7,912 bases of DNA from Escherichia coli. Its GTDB lineage: Bacteria; Pseudomonadota; Gammaproteobacteria; Enterobacterales; Enterobacteriaceae. Position 1 is the stretch's first letter, and each line of letters opens with the position of its first letter. Positions 1 to 7,912 of the stretch are shown piece after piece. Below the pieces are notes generated by a model. It ran no database searches. It worked only from the letters and a program-made list of their open reading frames with translations, and was not told the DNA's origin. The stretch lies in assembly GCF_003334355.1 (NCBI RefSeq), contig NZ_QOWP01000062.1; one strand, written 5' to 3'. The translations under genes were made by a program, and so were the position numbers.

Positions 1-1
1 G

Positions 2-508
2 GAAAAACGAGTATTTTTAGTCATCCTGTTTACCTCTTTCTCAGGGAGTTTAGTCTCCAGGATTTCCGGGGCGGTTCATCGCGCCGAAGTTTTTGATTTT
101 GCCAGTATTGAAGGTAATGAAGAGAACAACGTATGGCTATGCGATTGCGCTAAAGTCTACGGTCACGCGCAGGTGAAAGCTGGCATAGAAGAAGATGCCA
201 TTCCGACGATTCATTACAGTTCGCAGGTGGCGGAATATGCCATTGTGAAAGGTAATTGTGTGTTAAAACATCATGTCTTGATTGGCGGAAATGCCGTGGT
301 ACGTGGTGGACCGATTCTGCTCGACGAGCACGTTGTAATACAAGGTGAGAGCCGTATTACAGGTGCGGTGATAATTGAAAACCATGTGGAGTTAACCGAC
401 CACGCCGTCGTTGAAGCCTTTGATGGCGACACGGTTCATGTCCGTGGTCCAAAAGTCATTAACGGCGAGGAGCGCATTACGCGAACGCCGCTGGCAGGGT
501 TATTATGA
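2..508 (+). CDS. ydcK: YdcK-like hexapeptide-repeat (left-handed beta-helix) acyltransferase-family protein, C-terminal part; 5' end lies upstream of the window
   Basis: Reading frame (codons starting at positions 2,5,8...) is open from the window edge to TGA at 506-508. The GTG at 173 used by the ORF track is internal. The translation shows repeated [LIV]-G-x-x-x-x hexapeptide-like units ([35 protein letters not shown]). Position convergent to rimL matches the E. coli neighbourhood. Confidence 0.8.
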
Positions 509-1039
509 ATCGATAATACGCGCGTATAAGTTCACATCATCATAGGCATCATTCAGGAACTCAGCCTGTTTCAGGCAACCTTCAAGGATAAAACCATTGC
601 GCAAAGCGACCTGGTTGCTTTGCGGATTGTCCACCCGACATTTGATCACGAAGCGTCTAAGTTCACCAGACTGAGCGTAATGATGAATCAATGCCTGCAG
701 CGCCTGAGAAATGATCCCCTGCCCCTGATGAGATTCGTCCAGCCAGTAGCCGATTTCAGCAGTTTTATTCAGTGGTTCAATACGATTAAACGAGATAACG
801 CCGATAAGTTCATCTTCTTTGAAAATCATGAACATTTTGGCATAGCCGCGTTGATGCAACATCACATTACCCTGCACCGTTTTTCGCGTGTCCTCTTCAC
901 TCTGAACGAACTGCGGCCAGTTTAGCGACTGCTGTAACCAGGTTTTATTTTTACAAATTAACTGATAAAGAGGTGTGACGTGACTTTCCGCAACAGCATG
1001 TAATTCAAGTGATTCGCTTACTTTTATCGTTTCAGTCAT
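503..1039 (-). CDS. rimL: Ribosomal-protein L7/L12 serine N-acetyltransferase (GNAT family)
   Basis: The track ORF 503..1054 begins at a TTG. The internal ATG at 1037-1039 ([16 protein letters not shown]...) is preceded by a GGAG Shine-Dalgarno (actGGAGataagATG) and gives 178 aa matching my recollection of RimL. Stop TAA is at 503-505. Confidence 0.88.
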
Positions 1040-1068
1040 CTTATCTCCAGTCAATCCATGCTGTTGTT

Positions 1069-1093
1069 AAAAAAGCCGCCTGGCTGGCGGCTT
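1069..1093 (-). terminator. Rho-independent terminator downstream of ydcH
   Basis: On the minus strand, GCCGCC-agcca-GGCGGC hairpin (plus 1075-1091) followed immediately by TTTTTT (complement of the A-run 1069-1074), about 10 nt after the ydcH stop. Confidence 0.6.
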
Positions 1094-1101
1094 AGGACAG
1101 T

Positions 1102-1326
1102 TTACACCTCTTTGACGCTCTCCTGCTGCAGGATTTTGAGCATCTCATCTTTTAACTGTAGCTTTTGTTTTTTCATGCGGACCACTTCCGCATTGTACCC
1201 TCGACCGTCGGAACCTTCCTTTCTGGCAATTTCATGATCAAGTTTATTGTGTTTATCGAACAAGGACATAAAGCGAGGATTTTCGTTTTTCAGACGGGAT
1301 ATTAAATCTCGGTATTCTGGAAACAT
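1102..1326 (-). CDS. ydcH: Small DUF465-family protein YdcH (74 aa)
   Basis: The track ORF starts at GTG 1330-1332. The ATG at 1324-1326 (MFPEYRDLISRLKNENPRF...) is preceded by GGAG with 5-nt spacing (cagGGAGtgcgtATG) and gives the 74-aa length I recall for YdcH. Stop TAA is at 1102-1104. Confidence 0.82.
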   Translation of the reverse strand: MFPEYRDLISRLKNENPRFMSLFDKHNKLDHEIARKEGSDGRGYNAEVVRMKKQKLQLKDEMLKILQQESVKEV

Positions 1327-1429
1327 ACGCACTCCCTGTTAGTGGCTGACAAGGTGTATCTGAAATACACACCATCAGATTACTCATTTAACTTAGGGAA
1401 AAATGCGAGCGGGATCGTGTTTAACCAGA

Positions 1430-1453
1430 CGGCACCTCCCGAAGAAGGTGCCG
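1430..1453 (-). other. Stable stem-loop immediately 3' of opgD, UUCG-type loop in the minus-strand RNA, no U-tract after it
   Basis: Plus-strand cGGCACCT(1430-1437)/AGGTGCCg(1446-1453) form an 8-bp stem. In the minus-strand transcript the loop is UCUUCGGG, which can close further into C(UUCG)G. It lies 13 nt after the opgD stop; a U-run precedes rather than follows the hairpin, so it is not a canonical intrinsic terminator. Confidence 0.35.
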
Positions 1454-1465
1454 AAGAAAAAACAA

Positions 1466-3121
1466 TTAACTCATCACGCGGTCGTCAACATACTGACGTT
1501 TATCCGGCGCTGGCGGGAAATACTGATACAGCCATGTTTCACTGATAGCGTCCCCCTGACAACGCAGATACATCCGCATATCGACCGGATCAGTGGAGTC
1601 CGACGTCGGATACCAGTCAAACTGAATACGATAACCATCAATGGGTTCAATATAGAGAATTTCGATTTGCTTCGCTTCCCCACTGGAAAGCGTAATCACC
1701 GGCTCAATGCCTTTTGGTGCGGCAGCTTTCAGATCACCACCAACGAAATCGACGGCAAAACGACGCGCCCATTTTTCGGGATAGTGTTCACCTGGCGCCC
1801 AACCTTCCGGGAAACCGCCCATGCCGGTACGCGTCGCCATAACGCGCGCTAATGGGCAATGAACAGGCGGTTGCGCACTCCAGTACAGACGATACTGGAA
1901 TGCAAACTCATCACCCGCTTTTACAGCTTTTTCTGGCTGCCAGAAGCAGACAATGTTATCCAGCGTTTCGCCCGTTGTTGGGATTTCCATCAGGCCGATG
2001 GTGCCCTTACCCCACTTGTTACGCGGTTCCACCCACAGACTTGGGCGTTTGTTATACCAGCCCATAATGTCCTGGTAATGGGAGAAGTCACGATCCAGTT
2101 GCAATAAACCAAACCCTTTCGGATTGTTGTCGGTGTAAGCATTGAACTGCAATTTTTGCGGATTATTCAGCGGACGGCAAATCCACTCGCCGTTGCCCCG
2201 CCACATGGACAGACGATCAGAGTCATGAATTTGCGGATGAATGGTGTCGCACATCCGACGTTCATTAGTACCGCAGCTGAACATACTGGTCATCGGCGCA
2301 ATGCCCAGCTGTTTAATGTCTTTGCGCGCATACAGGTGATTTTCCACATCCATAATCACCTGACTTTTCTCACAATGGATAGTGAACTTATAGGCACCAG
2401 TAATGCTGGCGCTATCGAGCAACGCATAAACGGTAAAGGTAGTTGCCCCCGGTTTTACCGTATCAAACCAGAAGGCGGTAAAGTCGGGGAACTCTTCTTT
2501 ACTGTCGGTGTAAGTGTCGATCGCCAGGCCGCGGGCCGACAAACCGTATTGATATGTATCATCAACGGCGCGGAAATAACTCGCGCCGAGAAATGATACT
2601 ACATCACGGCGCGCCAGTTCGGGGGCTTTAAACACGCGAAAACCGGCAAAGCCGAGATCGCTTTGCCCTTCTAATTGTTTGGTATCAACACCTGCATCGT
2701 TGTATTTGAACAACTCCGGGCGAAAGTGAATTTCACGCGCCAGATGTGTTGCTGGATCTACAGAAAACATACGAACGCGGCGACGGAATCCCATTCCCAT
2801 ATGGAAGAACTGAGCGTCCAGTTGACGGTTCTCAACGTTATGCCAGAGCGATTTTTCGGCGTCGTATTGAATACTGTTATAAGCCTGCGGCGTCATTGTC
2901 GCCAGCGTGTCAGGTAACGGACGAGGCGCACCACGCCACGCTGTTTGCGCTAAGTCGTGCGCCATTGACTGTAGAATGGAGAAGTCAAAACGCTGGGTTT
3001 GCCCGTCGGCAATATCAGAATCTGCCGCGAATGCCGCCTGAGAAAAAAGAGAAGCAATGCCGCTGGTACCGCACACGGCGGCCATAGCCATTGAACCTTT
3101 AATAAATCGTCTACGATCCAT
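1466..3121 (-). CDS. opgD: Glucans biosynthesis protein D (periplasmic, Tat-exported; osmoregulated periplasmic glucan backbone-length control)
   Basis: 551-aa ORF starting at ATG (rc of 3119-3121). N-terminus [35 protein letters not shown] has a twin-arginine motif (RRxFIK) and an AxA cleavage site. Length and sequence match my recollection of E. coli OpgD/MdoD. Confidence 0.93.
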
Positions 3122-3139
3122 ACCTGAAAGTGAGTCCTT

Positions 3140-3250
3140 CTGGTGTTGTGAATGGTCCCGCGCTGGTCGTTTTCAGCGGCAAGAAAGTGCTTATTTATGA
3201 CCGCTCACTCTAGACAATATTTATTAATAATCCAATTGTTGAACTGAGAG
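3140..3250 (-). promoter_or_regulatory. Probable opgD promoter region (AT-rich)
   Basis: Minus-strand sequence upstream of the opgD ATG contains TTGGAT-17 nt-TAGAGT and an overlapping TCATAAAT -10-like element inside a very AT-rich tract (aacaattggattattaataaatattg). No experimental anchor; the exact elements are uncertain. Confidence 0.3.
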
Positions 3251-3291
3251 AATATGCATAAATCGGCATTTTTTTTATGTCGATGGGATGA

Positions 3292-3316
3292 GCCTGATTC
3301 GTTTGTAAAATCAGGC
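3292..3316. other. Stem-loop 30 nt downstream of the ydcJ stop
   Basis: GCCTGATT(3292-3299)/AATCAGGC(3309-3316) 8-bp stem with a 9-nt loop. On the plus strand it is followed by aaaTTTTT; on the minus (ydcJ) strand no U-tract follows. Candidate transcript-end structure, orientation ambiguous. Confidence 0.3.
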
Positions 3317-3345
3317 AAATTTTTGCAAAGGCGGATGGTCAGAAT

Positions 3346-4689
3346 TTAAAGCAAACCACAGCGACGTTTACTGCGTTCTTCCGCTTCCTGATAAAGCTGG
3401 AACTCATCCAAAACCGGACAACCCAACGCCTGCTCAAATGCTTCGCGACTGGCATTACCGTGATTGCGTGCCTGCGTTTCATTACCCAGATTTGACTGGA
3501 AGATCCCCGCCGCGCTAACGGGCAAGAAATCTTCATAGGTAATGGGTTGCGCCGCGACCCAACCACGTTCAATTAAGGGCTGTGGATCGTCTCCGGGATG
3601 AATCGCCTGACGATGCGCCTCACCCGAAGGCGTCAGACGGTACCGGAACCATGCCAGCCCTTGCTGACGCATTAAAAACTCACTGTCAGGAAAAGTGCGG
3701 AAGGTTTCCTGTAAATGCATTTGGTGAGTGAGATTATCCTGCCCGGTTCCAGCGTTACGCAGAAGATCATCATACAGTTGTCGCCCTTTCGGCGTTAATG
3801 CCACGCCACGCTGCTCAATTTCACCAAAGCGCGCAGTATGCGTGCCCTGTTTCTGCCCCGCAAACAACACCGTCTCTTCCAGTGCTTTAAAGCTGGTCTG
3901 GCGTAGTAAAATCGGTACCTCGCGGCGCGGCGGCCCTTCGATCAGAATTTTTGGTTCAATTCCGCATTCAGGCATCATCGACTGCACCCGGTCAATATCC
4001 AGCGTACGTGGCGTCAGATGGTTGATATGGCATCCAGGAAAACAGACCACATCAGCAATCAACCGATGTTCGTTGTGCAAGGCGCGATAGGTTTCTTCAT
4101 CTACCGTTGCTGACTGGTGCCAGCGAAACGTTTCCAGGGCTTCCTGCACAAACTCCTGTGCCTGTGTTTCGTTAAAACCGCCCCGCTGCTCATATTCCTC
4201 TAACAGTAGTCGACAACGTGGGGTGAAGATATCGCGCTGACGTAGAATCTCCGCCGCTTTCTGGCGCAAAATTTCGTTCTCGATAAGCTCAAGGCGGAGT
4301 AACGAGGTAAAAACGCGGAAGGGATTACGCGCCAGAGAAGCATCATCAATGGGCCGAAATGCTGTCGAATGTACCGGCACCCCCGCCTGCGAGAGATCGT
4401 AATAGCTCACCGGGTACATCCCCATAATGGCAAACATCCGCCGAAGAGTAGCAAGCTCTTGTGCAGTCCCAACGCGAATCGCCCCATGACGTTCAACATT
4501 CAGTCGCGCCAGCTCGTCTGCATTTACCATTTTTTCGTGCAGTTGAGGATTGTTTTCCAGCACAGCCAGATTCACATCAGCTACCAGTTCCAGCAGCGTG
4601 CCGTACTGCGGAACTTCTTGCTGGTACATGGCTGACATTGCCTGCGAAAACTGTTCCCGAATCTCATCCGCCGTGATGCTGTTCGCCAT
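3346..4689 (-). CDS. ydcJ: DUF1338-family metalloprotein YdcJ (family includes HglS-type 2-oxoadipate dioxygenase/decarboxylase)
   Basis: 447-aa ORF with ATG start (rc of 4687-4689) preceded by a GGAGG Shine-Dalgarno 8 nt upstream. Stop TAA at 3346-3348. Sequence MANSITADEIREQF... matches my recollection of E. coli YdcJ. The enzymatic assignment is by family membership only. Confidence 0.88.
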   Translation of the reverse strand: MANSITADEIREQFSQAMSAMYQQEVPQYGTLLELVADVNLAVLENNPQLHEKMVNADELARLNVERHGAIRVGTAQELATLRRMFAIMGMYPVSYYDLSQAGVPVHSTAFRPIDDASLARNPFRVFTSLLRLELIENEILRQKAAEILRQRDIFTPRCRLLLEEYEQRGGFNETQAQEFVQEALETFRWHQSATVDEETYRALHNEHRLIADVVCFPGCHINHLTPRTLDIDRVQSMMPECGIEPKILIEGPPRREVPILLRQTSFKALEETVLFAGQKQGTHTARFGEIEQRGVALTPKGRQLYDDLLRNAGTGQDNLTHQMHLQETFRTFPDSEFLMRQQGLAWFRYRLTPSGEAHRQAIHPGDDPQPLIERGWVAAQPITYEDFLPVSAAGIFQSNLGNETQARNHGNASREAFEQALGCPVLDEFQLYQEAEERSKRRCGLL

Positions 4690-4905
4690 ATTGTCTGCCT
4701 CCAGTGGTCAGTAATCTGGAGTGTAGGTAACCGCATTCACTCTGGCGGGAAGAATTTACAAACTGTGATCTCGCCGCGAAAACATCAATATTATCCATTT
4801 TGCTGTAACATGATTGCTTTAATTGTTAATAATATTTTGCAATCAAGTTATCATAATCAAACAACTTCACTTGTCAGCGACACCGCTTCGTTTTTAACAT
4901 CGCTT
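4690..4905. promoter_or_regulatory. Divergent ydcJ/ydcI intergenic control region with AT-rich core and an imperfect palindrome
   Basis: 216-nt gap between divergent starts. Strongly AT-rich 4800-4860. ATTGTTAATAAT (4822-4833) is a 10/12 palindrome of the T-N11-A type expected for LysR-type regulator binding. Several weak -10-like hexamers (TAATAA/TAATAT 4827-4835). Confidence 0.4.
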
Positions 4906-5829
4906 ATGGAAAAAAATAGTCTGTTTAGTCAGCGCATCCGTTTGCGCCACCTTCATACATTCGTAGCTGTCGCACAACAAGGAACTTTGGGGCGCGCGGC
5001 TGAAACCCTTAATTTGAGTCAACCTGCGCTCTCTAAGACATTGAATGAACTGGAGCAGCTGACTGGCGCTCGCTTGTTTGAGCGTGGTCGTCAGGGGGCG
5101 CAACTTACCTTACCCGGCGAACAATTTTTAACGCATGCAGTCAGAGTTCTTGACGCCATCAACACTGCCGGACGGTCGCTTCATCGTAAAGAAGGTCTTA
5201 ATAATGATGTCGTCAGGGTTGGTGCACTACCTACTGCGGCACTGGGGATATTACCTTCGGTTATAGGTCAGTTTCATCAGCAACAAAAAGAGACGACCTT
5301 GCAAGTTGCGACAATGAGTAACCCTATGATTCTGGCGGGTTTAAAAACCGGGGAAATCGATATCGGCATTGGTCGGATGTCAGATCCTGAACTGATGACC
5401 GGGCTTAATTACGAACTGCTGTTTCTTGAATCGTTGAAGCTGGTTGTCCGCCCTAATCACCCGCTACTTCAGGAGAACGTAACGCTAAGCCGGGTGCTGG
5501 AATGGCCGGTCGTTGTATCACCAGAAGGCACTGCGCCACGCCAGCATTCAGATGCATTAGTGCAGAGCCAGGGCTGTAAAATTCCTTCGGGTTGTATCGA
5601 AACGCTGTCTGCTTCGCTATCTCGTCAACTTACGGTTGAATACGATTACGTGTGGTTTGTCCCTTCTGGCGCTGTAAAAGACGACCTGCGTCATGCCACG
5701 CTGGTGGCCCTGCCTGTTCCGGGACATGGTGCAGGCGAACCGATTGGAATACTGACCCGCGTAGATGCGACGTTCTCTTCTGGTTGCCAGTTGATGATTA
5801 ACGCTATTCGAAAATCAATGCCGTTCTGA
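4906..5829 (+). CDS. ydcI: LysR-type transcriptional regulator YdcI (307 aa)
   Basis: Although the frame is open from 4765, the ATG at 4906 (MEKNSLFSQRIRLRHLHTFVAVAQQGTLGRAAETLNLSQPALSKTL...) puts the helix-turn-helix at the extreme N-terminus as in LysR-type regulators and gives the 307-aa length I recall. Stop TGA at 5827-5829. Confidence 0.88.
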   Translation: MEKNSLFSQRIRLRHLHTFVAVAQQGTLGRAAETLNLSQPALSKTLNELEQLTGARLFERGRQGAQLTLPGEQFLTHAVRVLDAINTAGRSLHRKEGLNNDVVRVGALPTAALGILPSVIGQFHQQQKETTLQVATMSNPMILAGLKTGEIDIGIGRMSDPELMTGLNYELLFLESLKLVVRPNHPLLQENVTLSRVLEWPVVVSPEGTAPRQHSDALVQSQGCKIPSGCIETLSASLSRQLTVEYDYVWFVPSGAVKDDLRHATLVALPVPGHGAGEPIGILTRVDATFSSGCQLMINAIRKSMPF

Positions 5830-5836
5830 AAGGTGA

Positions 5837-5854
5837 AGGGATCTGTCGATCCCT
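5837..5854. terminator. GC-rich hairpin in the 37-nt gap between convergent ydcI and trg (probable bidirectional terminator)
   Basis: AGGGATC(5837-5843)-tgtc-GATCCCT(5848-5854) is a perfect 7-bp stem. Followed by cattTTC... on plus and cacCTTTC on minus; both U-tracts are short. Confidence 0.45.
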
Positions 5855-5866
5855 CCTTGAACATTT

Positions 5867-7507
5867 TCACACCGTAGCGAAACTAACTGGTTCACCCGCT
5901 CCGCGAGGTTCTGCCGACACAGAATGTTTGTGCAGACGGAATACATCCACCGCCTCAGTTAATCGTGCCGCCTGTTCTTCAAGGGACACCGCCGCCGCTG
6001 AGGCCTCTTCTACCAGAGAAGCATTCTGTTGCGTCACCTTATCCATTTCAGAAATCGCCTGGCTAACCTGCGTTATGCCTCTACTTTGTTCATCCGAGGC
6101 GGCGGCGATTTCCTGCATGATATGTGTGACACTCGCGACGGCATCAACAATAGTGCTCATGGTTTTCCCGGCCGTTGCCACCTCATCCGACCCCAGGTCA
6201 ATTAACCTGACTGATTCACTGATCAAGCCTTCAATCTCTTTCGCCGCCTGAGCGCTGCGACTTGCGAGTGTCCGTACTTCGCTGGCGACAACGGCAAATC
6301 CACGCCCTTGCTCACCCGCTCGCGCGGCTTCAACGGCAGCATTCAGTGCCAGAATATTCGTCTGGAAAGCAATACTGTTGATGACGGCGGTGATCTCAGA
6401 AATTTTCTTCGAACTCGTGGAGATAGCGCCCATCGTTTTTACTACACCGGAAACCGTCTGCCCGCCATCGCTGGCTTTAATAGAAGCCTCTTGCGCCAGT
6501 TTGCTGGCATGATGCGCGTTATCCGCATTCTGTTTCACCGTCGCAGTGAGTTGCTCCATGCTGGCGGCAGTTTGTTCGATAGCCGCCGCTTATTCTTCGG
6601 TGCGAGATGACAGGTCCGCATTGCCAGCTGAAATTTCGCTGGTGCCACGATAAATCTCTTCCGCGCCCTGTCGAACAGTCCCTACTGTCATCCCCAGTGA
6701 ATGCTGCATTTGCTGTAAATGACGACTTAAGCGACCGATTTCATTACGACCCGCCGGTTCATCATTCATCGTCAGATCGCCACTGGCGATTTTTTCAATC
6801 CGTTGTGCGGCATGTTGCAGTGGACGAATGACGATCCGACGTAGCACCATAAATGTTATCAGCGTCATGACCAGGGCAAGCACAAACGCGCCAATCATGA
6901 ACATCCCACCCAGGCGGGTGCGCTGATGGGCCAGTTCCGCCAGTTGGTTGGCTCTGGTGCTACGTATCTTAACGGCTTTGTTCAAAATATCGGTATAAGC
7001 ATTATCCAGCGGTCGGATCTGCTCACTTTCATGATTGATAATCGCTTCAAACATGCCATTTTTGGCATATTTCAACATAGGTTGCATACCCGTGATATAA
7101 GCCTGAAAGCGTTGATTTAATTCAGTGTCGAGGGCTTCATCAGCAGGTGTTTTCACCGGTCGATTCTGATAAGCACGATAACCTTGCTGCGACTGTTTAA
7201 TCTCCGATTCGGCTTGCGCAATATTTCGCTTCATTGCTTCCATTTCCGCAATACGACTCGCAGCCCCGGCCTGAATCATATTGATCCGGGCTGAACGCAA
7301 AAAATCTGAACTGTTCGCTAACCCGGTCCGAATCTCAATCTCCGCAGTAACATCACGCTGATCGCGATCGGCCTGCCAGAGGAAATAGCCAGCCAGAGCA
7401 GAACTTAATGCGAATAGAACTAAGATACCGCCAAGAATGCAGGCAAATAACGGAACCAGCCTGATGTGATGCAAAAAACCTAATCGATGTGAGGGAGTTG
7501 TATTCAT
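5867..7507 (-). pseudogene. trg: Methyl-accepting chemotaxis protein III (ribose/galactose chemoreceptor) with an in-frame premature TAA at codon 306
   Basis: Track ORFs 6590..7507 (305 aa, MNTTPSHRLGF...) and 5867..6559 (230 aa) are in the same frame. The first ends SSRTEE-TAA (plus 6590-6592); the 10 intervening codons read [10 protein letters not shown], then [15 protein letters not shown]... continues into the conserved signalling domain. 305 + 1 + 10 + 230 = 546 codons, the full length I recall for Trg. Confidence 0.8.
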
Positions 7508-7546
7508 TACCGTTGTCTCTCGTCCAGGTTTACTCCTGATAGAAAG

Positions 7547-7573
7547 TCATCGGCACTTGACGGTAATTACTTA
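7547..7573 (-). promoter_or_regulatory. Candidate sigma28 (FliA) promoter for trg
   Basis: Minus-strand GCCGATGA (plus 7547-7554) matches the sigma28 -10 consensus GCCGATAA at 7/8 and lies about 40 nt upstream of the trg ATG. An 11-nt spacer separates it from TAAGTAAT (plus 7566-7573), a 4/8 match to TAAAGTTT. trg is a known flagellar class 3 gene. Confidence 0.4.
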
Positions 7574-7724
7574 TGACCAAAAACCTCTTTGCGTCACATT
7601 TTTACAACAATTATTGCAAAGAAAATTAATGCTATTGGAATGAAGAGAGTAACGAATGGCTAAACTGGCTAACCCGAATGACGAAAAATTCTGGAAAACA
7701 GCACGCAATTTCGTGAAGTGATTA

Positions 7725-7753
7725 TTTTCGTCCCTAAGGAAACCTCATAGGAT
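7725..7753 (+). promoter_or_regulatory. Possible promoter for the hok-type toxin mRNA (hokB/mokB transcript)
   Basis: TTTTCG-17 nt-TAGGAT (weak) placed just upstream of a sequence (from about 7758: GGGUGCCUGAGACUUUCUGUUUUCAGGC) that resembles, from memory, the 5' end of plasmid R1 hok mRNA. That 5' region forms an 8-bp hairpin (7764-7771/7780-7787). Confidence 0.25.
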
Positions 7754-7799
7754 GCCTGCGGGTGCCTGAGACTTTCTGTTTTCAGGCTAACCGGGAATC

Positions 7800-7853
7800 A
7801 GAAAGACGAAGGCCCCGACCGATATTTCTATCAACTGTACTGCACCCATTTTG
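7800..7853 (-). ncRNA. sokB: Putative Sok-type antisense RNA (sokB-like); ends approximate
   Basis: Transcript predicted from the strong minus-strand promoter at 7861-7889. It is antisense to the toxin mRNA leader just upstream of the putative mokB start. The complementary plus-strand leader (CAGAAAGACGAAGGCCCCG) resembles the R1 hok leader I recall. The 3' end is not defined by a clear terminator. Confidence 0.4.
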
Positions 7854-7860
7854 TTGGACG

Positions 7861-7889
7861 ATGAAATGGAATAGCCCCTAATATGTCAA
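7861..7889 (-). promoter_or_regulatory. Near-consensus sigma70 promoter on the minus strand (antisense/Sok promoter)
   Basis: Minus strand reads TTGACA (plus 7884-7889), a 17-nt spacer, then TTTCAT (plus 7861-7866). The -35 is a perfect consensus, the spacing is optimal and the -10 is 4/6. The -35 overlaps the plus-strand ATG at 7883. Confidence 0.5.
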
Positions 7890-7912
7890 AGCCAAAATAC
7901 CCTTTTGAAAAG
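7883..7912 (+). CDS. mokB: 5' end of putative mokB-like reading frame (hok/sok family modulator ORF), truncated by the window edge
   Basis: ATG at 7883 opens MSKPKYPFEK..., which runs off the window. It starts like R1 Mok (MSSPHQ..., from memory) and sits where the antisense promoter overlaps. No Shine-Dalgarno is visible. The Hok toxin ORF would lie beyond 7912. Confidence 0.3.
   Translation, partial: MSKPKYPFEK

Follow-up and report, generated by a model that had tools for sequence, protein, structure and literature searches.

The convergent rimL and ydcK genes of Escherichia coli overlap by a few bases where their stop codons lie, a probable product of stop-codon drift

The window analyzed in our study, a stretch of 7,912 nucleotides from Escherichia coli (NCBI RefSeq assembly GCF_003334355.1, contig NZ_QOWP01000062.1), carries the gene order ydcK-rimL-ydcH-opgD-hglS(ydcJ)-ydcI-trg-sokB, which has the reversed orientation in K-12. 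The plus-strand open reading frame that ends at position 508 represents the 3' portion of ydcK (C-terminus ...RTPLAGLL), and it converges with rimL, the gene for the ribosomal protein L7/L12-serine acetyltransferase, which is one codon shorter here than in K-12. When the stop codons are counted, the two coding regions have the six nucleotides TTATGA in common, and the last sense codon of each partner lies under the stop of the other: the TTA of Leu326 in ydcK is read as TAA in rimL, and the TCA of Ser178 in rimL is read as TGA in ydcK. The initial annotation had described these adjacent stops and the six shared nucleotides from the letters of the sequence; the description is confirmed by the sequence, by the open reading frames, and by the RefSeq annotation of E. 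coli PSS-12. This strain matches the window from 77 to 7912 with a reported identity of 100.0%, and PGAP/RefSeq annotates the same 6-nt overlap in it (ydcK at 952-1932 on the plus strand and rimL at 1927-2463 on the minus strand, in coordinates of the extracted locus). The pair consists of two genuine protein-coding genes on opposite strands whose coding sequences converge and overlap, the ydcK of the window being a 3' fragment only, and YdcK homologues of 326-328 amino acids are found at the same place in seven genera. The coordinates of all features at the junction are collected in Table 1.

Table 1. Features of the rimL/ydcK junction and its surroundings, in coordinates of the window.
Feature	Position	Strand	Description
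IS1203/IS629 (IS3-family), terminal 78 nt	1-78	-	100% identity to annotated IS1203 family ends
ydcK, 3' fragment	77-508	+	codons 184-326 of 326, plus stop; megablast match from 77, tblastn with K-12 YdcK
Untranslated continuation of the rimL transcript (putative)	300-502	-	antisense to ydcK; C-rich, G-poor
Hairpin, 11 nt past the rimL stop	459-492	-	weak T tail; TGACTTTT
Ancestral rimL stop, in use in K-12	500-502	-	TAA; second, tandem stop in the window
rimL stop	503-505	-	TAA
Segment shared by rimL and ydcK	503-508	both	TTATGA; seen in the sequence and annotated alike by RefSeq where the sequence is identical
rimL (ribosomal protein L7/L12-serine acetyltransferase)	503-1039	-	178 codons plus stop; C-terminus ...YARIIDS
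SNP	505		A in the window, G in K-12; overlap 9 to 6 nt
ydcK stop	506-508	+	TGA
Presumed untranslated continuation of the ydcK transcript	509-1039	+	antisense to rimL; no convincing intrinsic terminator

The left end of the window belongs to an insertion sequence. Its terminal bases are GGTTCA, the matching database ends are annotated as 'IS3-like element IS1203 family transposase', and many IS1203/IS629 copies with an identical terminus occur in E. coli chromosomes and plasmids. The first open reading frame of the element (MTKNTRFS) starts at 30-28 on the minus strand, and the transposase reads away from ydcK. The insertion cuts ydcK at 76-78, at codon 183/184, and ydcK in this genome is a pseudogene fragment. 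The junction between the IS and ydcK was present in none of the 5426 complete E. coli genomes; one apparent full-length genome match to the window proved to be a composite of the locus and a distant copy of the IS, and not the same junction. Since transcription from the ydcK promoter would first have to cross the IS, the antisense overlap in this genome is probably one-sided, with the rimL transcript running into the ydcK remnant. Read-through from rimL on the minus strand would enter the IS in the sense direction of the transposase, 425 nt past the rimL stop. Elsewhere in the window, the chemoreceptor gene trg is split by a nonsense change (CAA to TAA at codon 306, 6590-6592 on the minus strand) into two open reading frames, 5867-6559 and 6590-7507. 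This allele is rare, being present in 11 of the 5426 complete genomes, PSS-12 included, and among the matches listed the underlying feature is named simply trg. Taken with the insertion in ydcK, the nonsense change in trg points to a lineage in which pseudogenes accumulate.

The length of the overlap differs between strains of the same species. In K-12, rimL (1498938-1499477) and ydcK (1499469-1500449) overlap by 9 nt, and a single base distinguishes the two junctions, which read TTATTGTGA in K-12 and TTATTATGA in the window. The substitution at position 505 is synonymous in ydcK, where a leucine codon changes from TTG to TTA, and nonsense in rimL, where the last codon, Gln179, changes from CAA to TAA. 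Both alleles are common: using 41-mers centred on the SNP, which forces it into every 28-nt seed word, we identified the window allele (A at 505) in 1925 and the K-12 allele (G at 505) in 3364 of the 5426 complete E. coli genomes. This position is a sense codon in all outgroups, which makes the 6-nt state the derived one. The 6-nt length is thus allele-specific and polymorphic within E. coli. It is important to note that the initial annotation had named a displaced stop codon as the observation that would count against the overlap; the rimL stop does shift by one codon between common alleles of E. coli, so that its exact position does not hold across the species, and the overlap persists in both.

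In order to follow the junction beyond E. coli, rimL was located in other genomes and the junction was read in each of them. Six Escherichia lineages (E. albertii and E. whittamii among them), three Citrobacter species, Enterobacter sp. kpr-6, and Enterobacter sp. 10-1 have an overlap of 9 nt; it is 6 nt in Kluyvera sichuanensis and 4 nt (TTAA) in Salmonella enterica. The two genes are separated by 1 nt in Raoultella terrigena, by 4 nt in Klebsiella aerogenes, and by 117 nt with G+C-rich palindromes in Klebsiella oxytoca, and ydcK is absent at this position in Intestinirhabdus alba. The convergent adjacency is therefore kept in Escherichia, Citrobacter, Enterobacter, Kluyvera, Salmonella, Raoultella, and Klebsiella, over a range that goes from an overlap of 9 nt to a gap of 117 nt. 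Among the relatives sampled, only K. oxytoca has rimL and ydcK separated by a real spacer; this spacer (2586-2702 of the extracted locus) contains nested palindromes that resemble a REP/BIME-type repeat, with a folding energy of about -54 kcal/mol, and the C-terminus of the K. oxytoca RimL, which has 194 amino acids, is extended towards it. The two proteins behave differently at their ends. YdcK has 326-328 residues, a conserved C-terminus, and the same stop in every genus sampled, whereas the length of RimL lies anywhere between 178 and 194 residues, and the RimL tails beyond 'ARIID' are unrelated between genera. Even the 9-nt overlaps differ from one another in sequence (TCA-CAA-TAA, TCA-GAA-TAA, TCA-GAG-TGA, and others). 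Judged from these comparisons, the convergent arrangement with almost no spacer appears to be old, and the overlap itself appears to come and go because the rimL stop drifts, a drift that the unconstrained tail of RimL would permit across the whole range from 9 shared nucleotides to a gap of 117. It is also important to consider, against drift, that most of the sampled genera keep the pair overlapping or within 4 nt, and that the identical, in-phase 9-nt overlap of Escherichia, Citrobacter, and Enterobacter, which persists despite changes in its inner sequence, could reflect selection rather than inertia.

No canonical intrinsic terminator was identified within about 400 nt after either stop, by a promoter/terminator scan and by a scan for hairpins followed by a T tract. 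The first of these, run on positions 1-1500, returned no terminator-like site and missed even the canonical terminator of ydcH, perhaps through the extension of its stem into the A/T flanks, which may shorten the T tail. The second, which was written for this purpose, recovered the ydcH terminator at 1068-1097 and is hence able to detect real terminators. The ydcH terminator lies on the minus strand between ydcH and rimL (GCCGCC-AGCCA-GGCGGC, then T6), with the start codon of rimL only about 30 nt further downstream, and rimL would be transcribed by read-through or from a promoter of its own. A 'primary' Term-seq 3' end assigned to ydcH at K-12 position 1498877 (PMC7815308) corresponds to about position 1100 of the window, 2 nt past the ydcH stop and before the hairpin rather than after its T tract. 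A scan against Rfam found no known RNA at the rimL/ydcK junction; its only match in the window was the sok antitoxin RNA at 7760-7912 (sokB of the hokB/sokB toxin-antitoxin locus), which scored 72.4 bits, above the gathering score of 59.

The hairpin just past the rimL stop was considered as a terminator embedded in ydcK and was rejected. Its folding is no better than that of shuffled sequence (z = -0.32, with 70 of 200 shuffles folding at least as well), and it differs from the RNAalifold consensus. Across 12 sequences from three genera it shows no covariation: the share of cells that pair was 83.3% against 83.2% in shuffled alignments, and the covariation score was 0.176 against 0.177. Past the ydcK stop there are likewise weak candidates only, all inside rimL, and the sole T-rich site, at about 905-956, stands behind a weak hairpin. 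The RNA that would follow the rimL stop has more C than G throughout: on the minus strand, from 502 down to 85, the ratio of C to G is 1.1-2.4 in all 78-nt windows, while the sense strands of ydcK, rimL, and opgD have ratios of 0.68-0.91. Untranslated RNA that is rich in C and poor in G is what Rho prefers.

The initial annotation had proposed that strand-specific RNA-seq or term-seq across the junction be used to map the 3' ends and to detect antisense coverage. Published data already provide this for the rimL side, in K-12, which is a different strain from that of the window. In the second supplementary file of Adams et al. 2021 (PMC7815308), a region of Rho-dependent termination is recorded on the rimL strand as 'antisense ydcK', with its peak at 1499587 on the plus strand of K-12 (Rho score 4.31, p = 1.5e-8). 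Coverage upstream and downstream of it was 82 and 20 without bicyclomycin, and 137 and 144 with the drug. This peak, whose position is coarse in that it derives from 800-nt coverage windows, lies 110 nt past the K-12 rimL stop and inside ydcK, at about position 390 of the window. The rimL transcript of K-12 thus has a bicyclomycin-sensitive end inside ydcK. In the curated Term-seq table of the same study, neither rimL nor ydcK contains a 3' end, and the Rho table likewise has no entry in rimL, so that these tables place no 3' end of the ydcK transcript; the SMRT-Cappable-seq supplements mention neither gene.

Antisense transcription has been recorded at both genes in K-12. According to Huang et al. 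2020 (PMC7373196, Table S1b/c), the sense and antisense reads of the wild type amount to 35.9 and 9.2 RPM for rimL and to 66.1 and 5.0 RPM for ydcK, and the double-stranded RNA captured by p19 amounts to 4.7-38.8 RPM for rimL and to 4.6-220.7 RPM for ydcK. Both genes are therefore weakly expressed, at tens of RPM, and both have some antisense RNA. In addition, rimL-ydcK is one of the 165 convergent pairs in Table 1 of the ExcludonFinder study of MG1655 (PMC12288877), a listing which indicates transcript overlap in no fewer than half of the 58 RNA-seq sets; a literature search on rimL, antisense transcription, and Rho returned no other relevant work. The neighbouring genes ydcI, which ends at 5829, and trg, which ends at 5867, converge at a distance of 37 nt (5830-5866) and are on the same list.

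We hold with good confidence that the rimL/ydcK junction is an ordinary tail-to-tail overlap, produced by drift of the rimL stop in a pair that has no spacer, with termination by Rho and complementary 3' ends as a by-product. According to this explanation, the rimL stop codon would drift along an unconstrained C-terminal tail, in a pair with essentially no intergenic space. RNA polymerase transcribing rimL would pass the stop and run on into ydcK, given that there is neither a spacer nor an intrinsic terminator to end transcription before. The ribosome would leave at the rimL stop, Rho would bind the naked, C-rich RNA, and transcription of rimL would be ended one hundred to a few hundred nucleotides further on; the ydcK transcript presumably behaves in the same manner inside rimL. 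The complementary 3' ends would then follow from tight gene packing and stop-codon drift, and they may give rise to some double-stranded RNA and to occasional collisions between polymerases. The basis for this explanation is, on the computed side, the geometry of the junction, its variation among alleles and genera, the lack of a supported hairpin terminator, and the excess of C over G; on the published side, it is the K-12 data on Rho dependence at the rimL strand, on transcript overlap, and on antisense and double-stranded RNA reads. The variation in the overlap also fits the origin by stop-codon mutation that has been proposed for convergent overlaps (PMC2174442).

With regard to the transcripts, the initial annotation had claimed that each must end inside the partner gene, which would make the antisense overlap obligate. 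The intergenic space is zero, and a full-length mRNA of either gene must therefore end inside the other; the Rho data of K-12 agree with this for rimL, and for ydcK the same may be expected. The geometry is right, but the word obligate is not supported: it applies only to a cell that transcribes the two genes at once, and the ydcK of this genome is interrupted by the IS. A functional overlap, to which the initial annotation had alluded, finds no support: the length varies between strains of E. coli, and the overlap is absent in Raoultella and in two Klebsiella species. Nothing shows that either gene is regulated through the overlap, and a regulatory function is probably absent.

A rival explanation is that of a functional convergent 'excludon', in which the overlap is selected and the expression of rimL and ydcK is mutually exclusive through polymerase collision or cleavage of the RNA duplex by RNase III. 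We consider this improbable. The presence of the pair on the published MG1655 list (PMC12288877) speaks for it, yet a pair with overlapping coding sequences satisfies the definition used by ExcludonFinder almost automatically once both genes are expressed, and the validation of convergent excludons with p19 data failed in the same paper. The p19-captured double-stranded RNA of ydcK, 133-221 RPM in four Illumina replicates (PMC7373196), is also in its favour, but the low expression of both genes implies that collisions should be rare, and no experiment showing reciprocal expression of rimL and ydcK was found in the literature. Zero or near-zero spacing is kept in Escherichia, Citrobacter, Enterobacter, Kluyvera, Salmonella, Raoultella, and K. 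aerogenes; against this, the overlap is not conserved in length, K. oxytoca has a spacer of 117 nt, Intestinirhabdus lacks ydcK, and the genome studied here tolerates an IS in ydcK. A more specific proposal, to which we give slightly less credence still, is that the near-zero spacing in at least seven enterobacterial genera has been selected and that mutual interference couples RimL inversely to YdcK, an uncharacterised hexapeptide-repeat protein. If this inverse coupling were true, it would be perturbed naturally by the SNP that is common in E. coli and by the IS insertion.

Two other explanations concern the way in which the transcripts end and the reality of the overlap itself. In the collision-driven model of termination (bioRxiv 10.1101/2022.10.23.513370), which was developed in connection with SEnd-seq and applies best to highly expressed pairs, a hairpin pauses the polymerases, head-on and trailing collisions release them, and sharp, Rho-independent 3' ends result from a bidirectional terminator. 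The two genes do converge without a spacer, and both strands of the palindrome at 459-492 are able to fold, but this hairpin performs no better than shuffled sequence and has no covariation, rimL and ydcK are weakly expressed, read-through on the rimL strand is sensitive to bicyclomycin and hence dependent on Rho, and no sharp Term-seq 3' ends are curated for either gene (PMC7815308). Such a terminator at this locus is very unlikely. Finally, the overlap could be an artefact of annotation, if one of the two stops were not the true end of a protein. Mechanical calls do need checking, as the automatic list of open reading frames contains a longer rimL frame with a TTG start (503-1054), and YdcK has no known function. 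Nevertheless, residues 1-178 of RimL match the crystallised RimL of Salmonella residue for residue up to the end (PDB 1z9u, 1s7k; E = 5e-81), and the two reading frames show conservation at their ends independently of each other, the YdcK stop being identical in every genus sampled. On these alignments, an artefact appears essentially refuted.

An ordinary tail-to-tail overlap places rimL/ydcK among many similar pairs. Convergent overlaps between coding sequences number 58 in E. coli according to Lillo and Krakauer 2007 (PMC2174442) or 75 according to Huvet and Stumpf 2014 (PMC4161906), and the model of stop-codon mutation explains such overlaps well (PMC2174442); on these counts, an overlap of this kind is no rarer than one would expect. 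As in rimL/ydcK, the convergent pairs of the surveyed bacteria share a few bases at their stops, and any terminator would necessarily lie inside the coding sequence of the partner. In rimL/ydcK, codon positions 123 face 321, the less frequent phase, which makes up 21% of convergent overlaps and 33% of those of at least 5 nt (PMC2174442); the commonest length is 4 nt, which is that of the Salmonella rimL/ydcK junction. The C-rich, G-poor region past the rimL stop resembles many of the 'antisense' rows in the table of Rho-terminated RNAs that extend past stops (PMC7815308). Among the convergent excludons of MG1655, rimL-ydcK is itself listed (PMC12288877), and the window differs from the listed pair by the IS in one of the partners. 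The pair mscL-arfA of E. coli is likewise convergent with complementary 3' ends (PMC10070815); for that pair, as distinct from rimL-ydcK, the antisense overlap is reported to have a real effect on regulation.

The overlap between rimL and ydcK is ordinary and was already known from the reference annotation and from genome-wide tables. Our study adds to this the polymorphism between 6 and 9 nt, which goes back to a single SNP, silent for ydcK and nonsense for rimL, the drift of the junction among relatives, and the ydcK pseudogene fragment in this genome. Rather than a lead to new biology, rimL/ydcK is a textbook example of stop-codon drift in overlapping genes.
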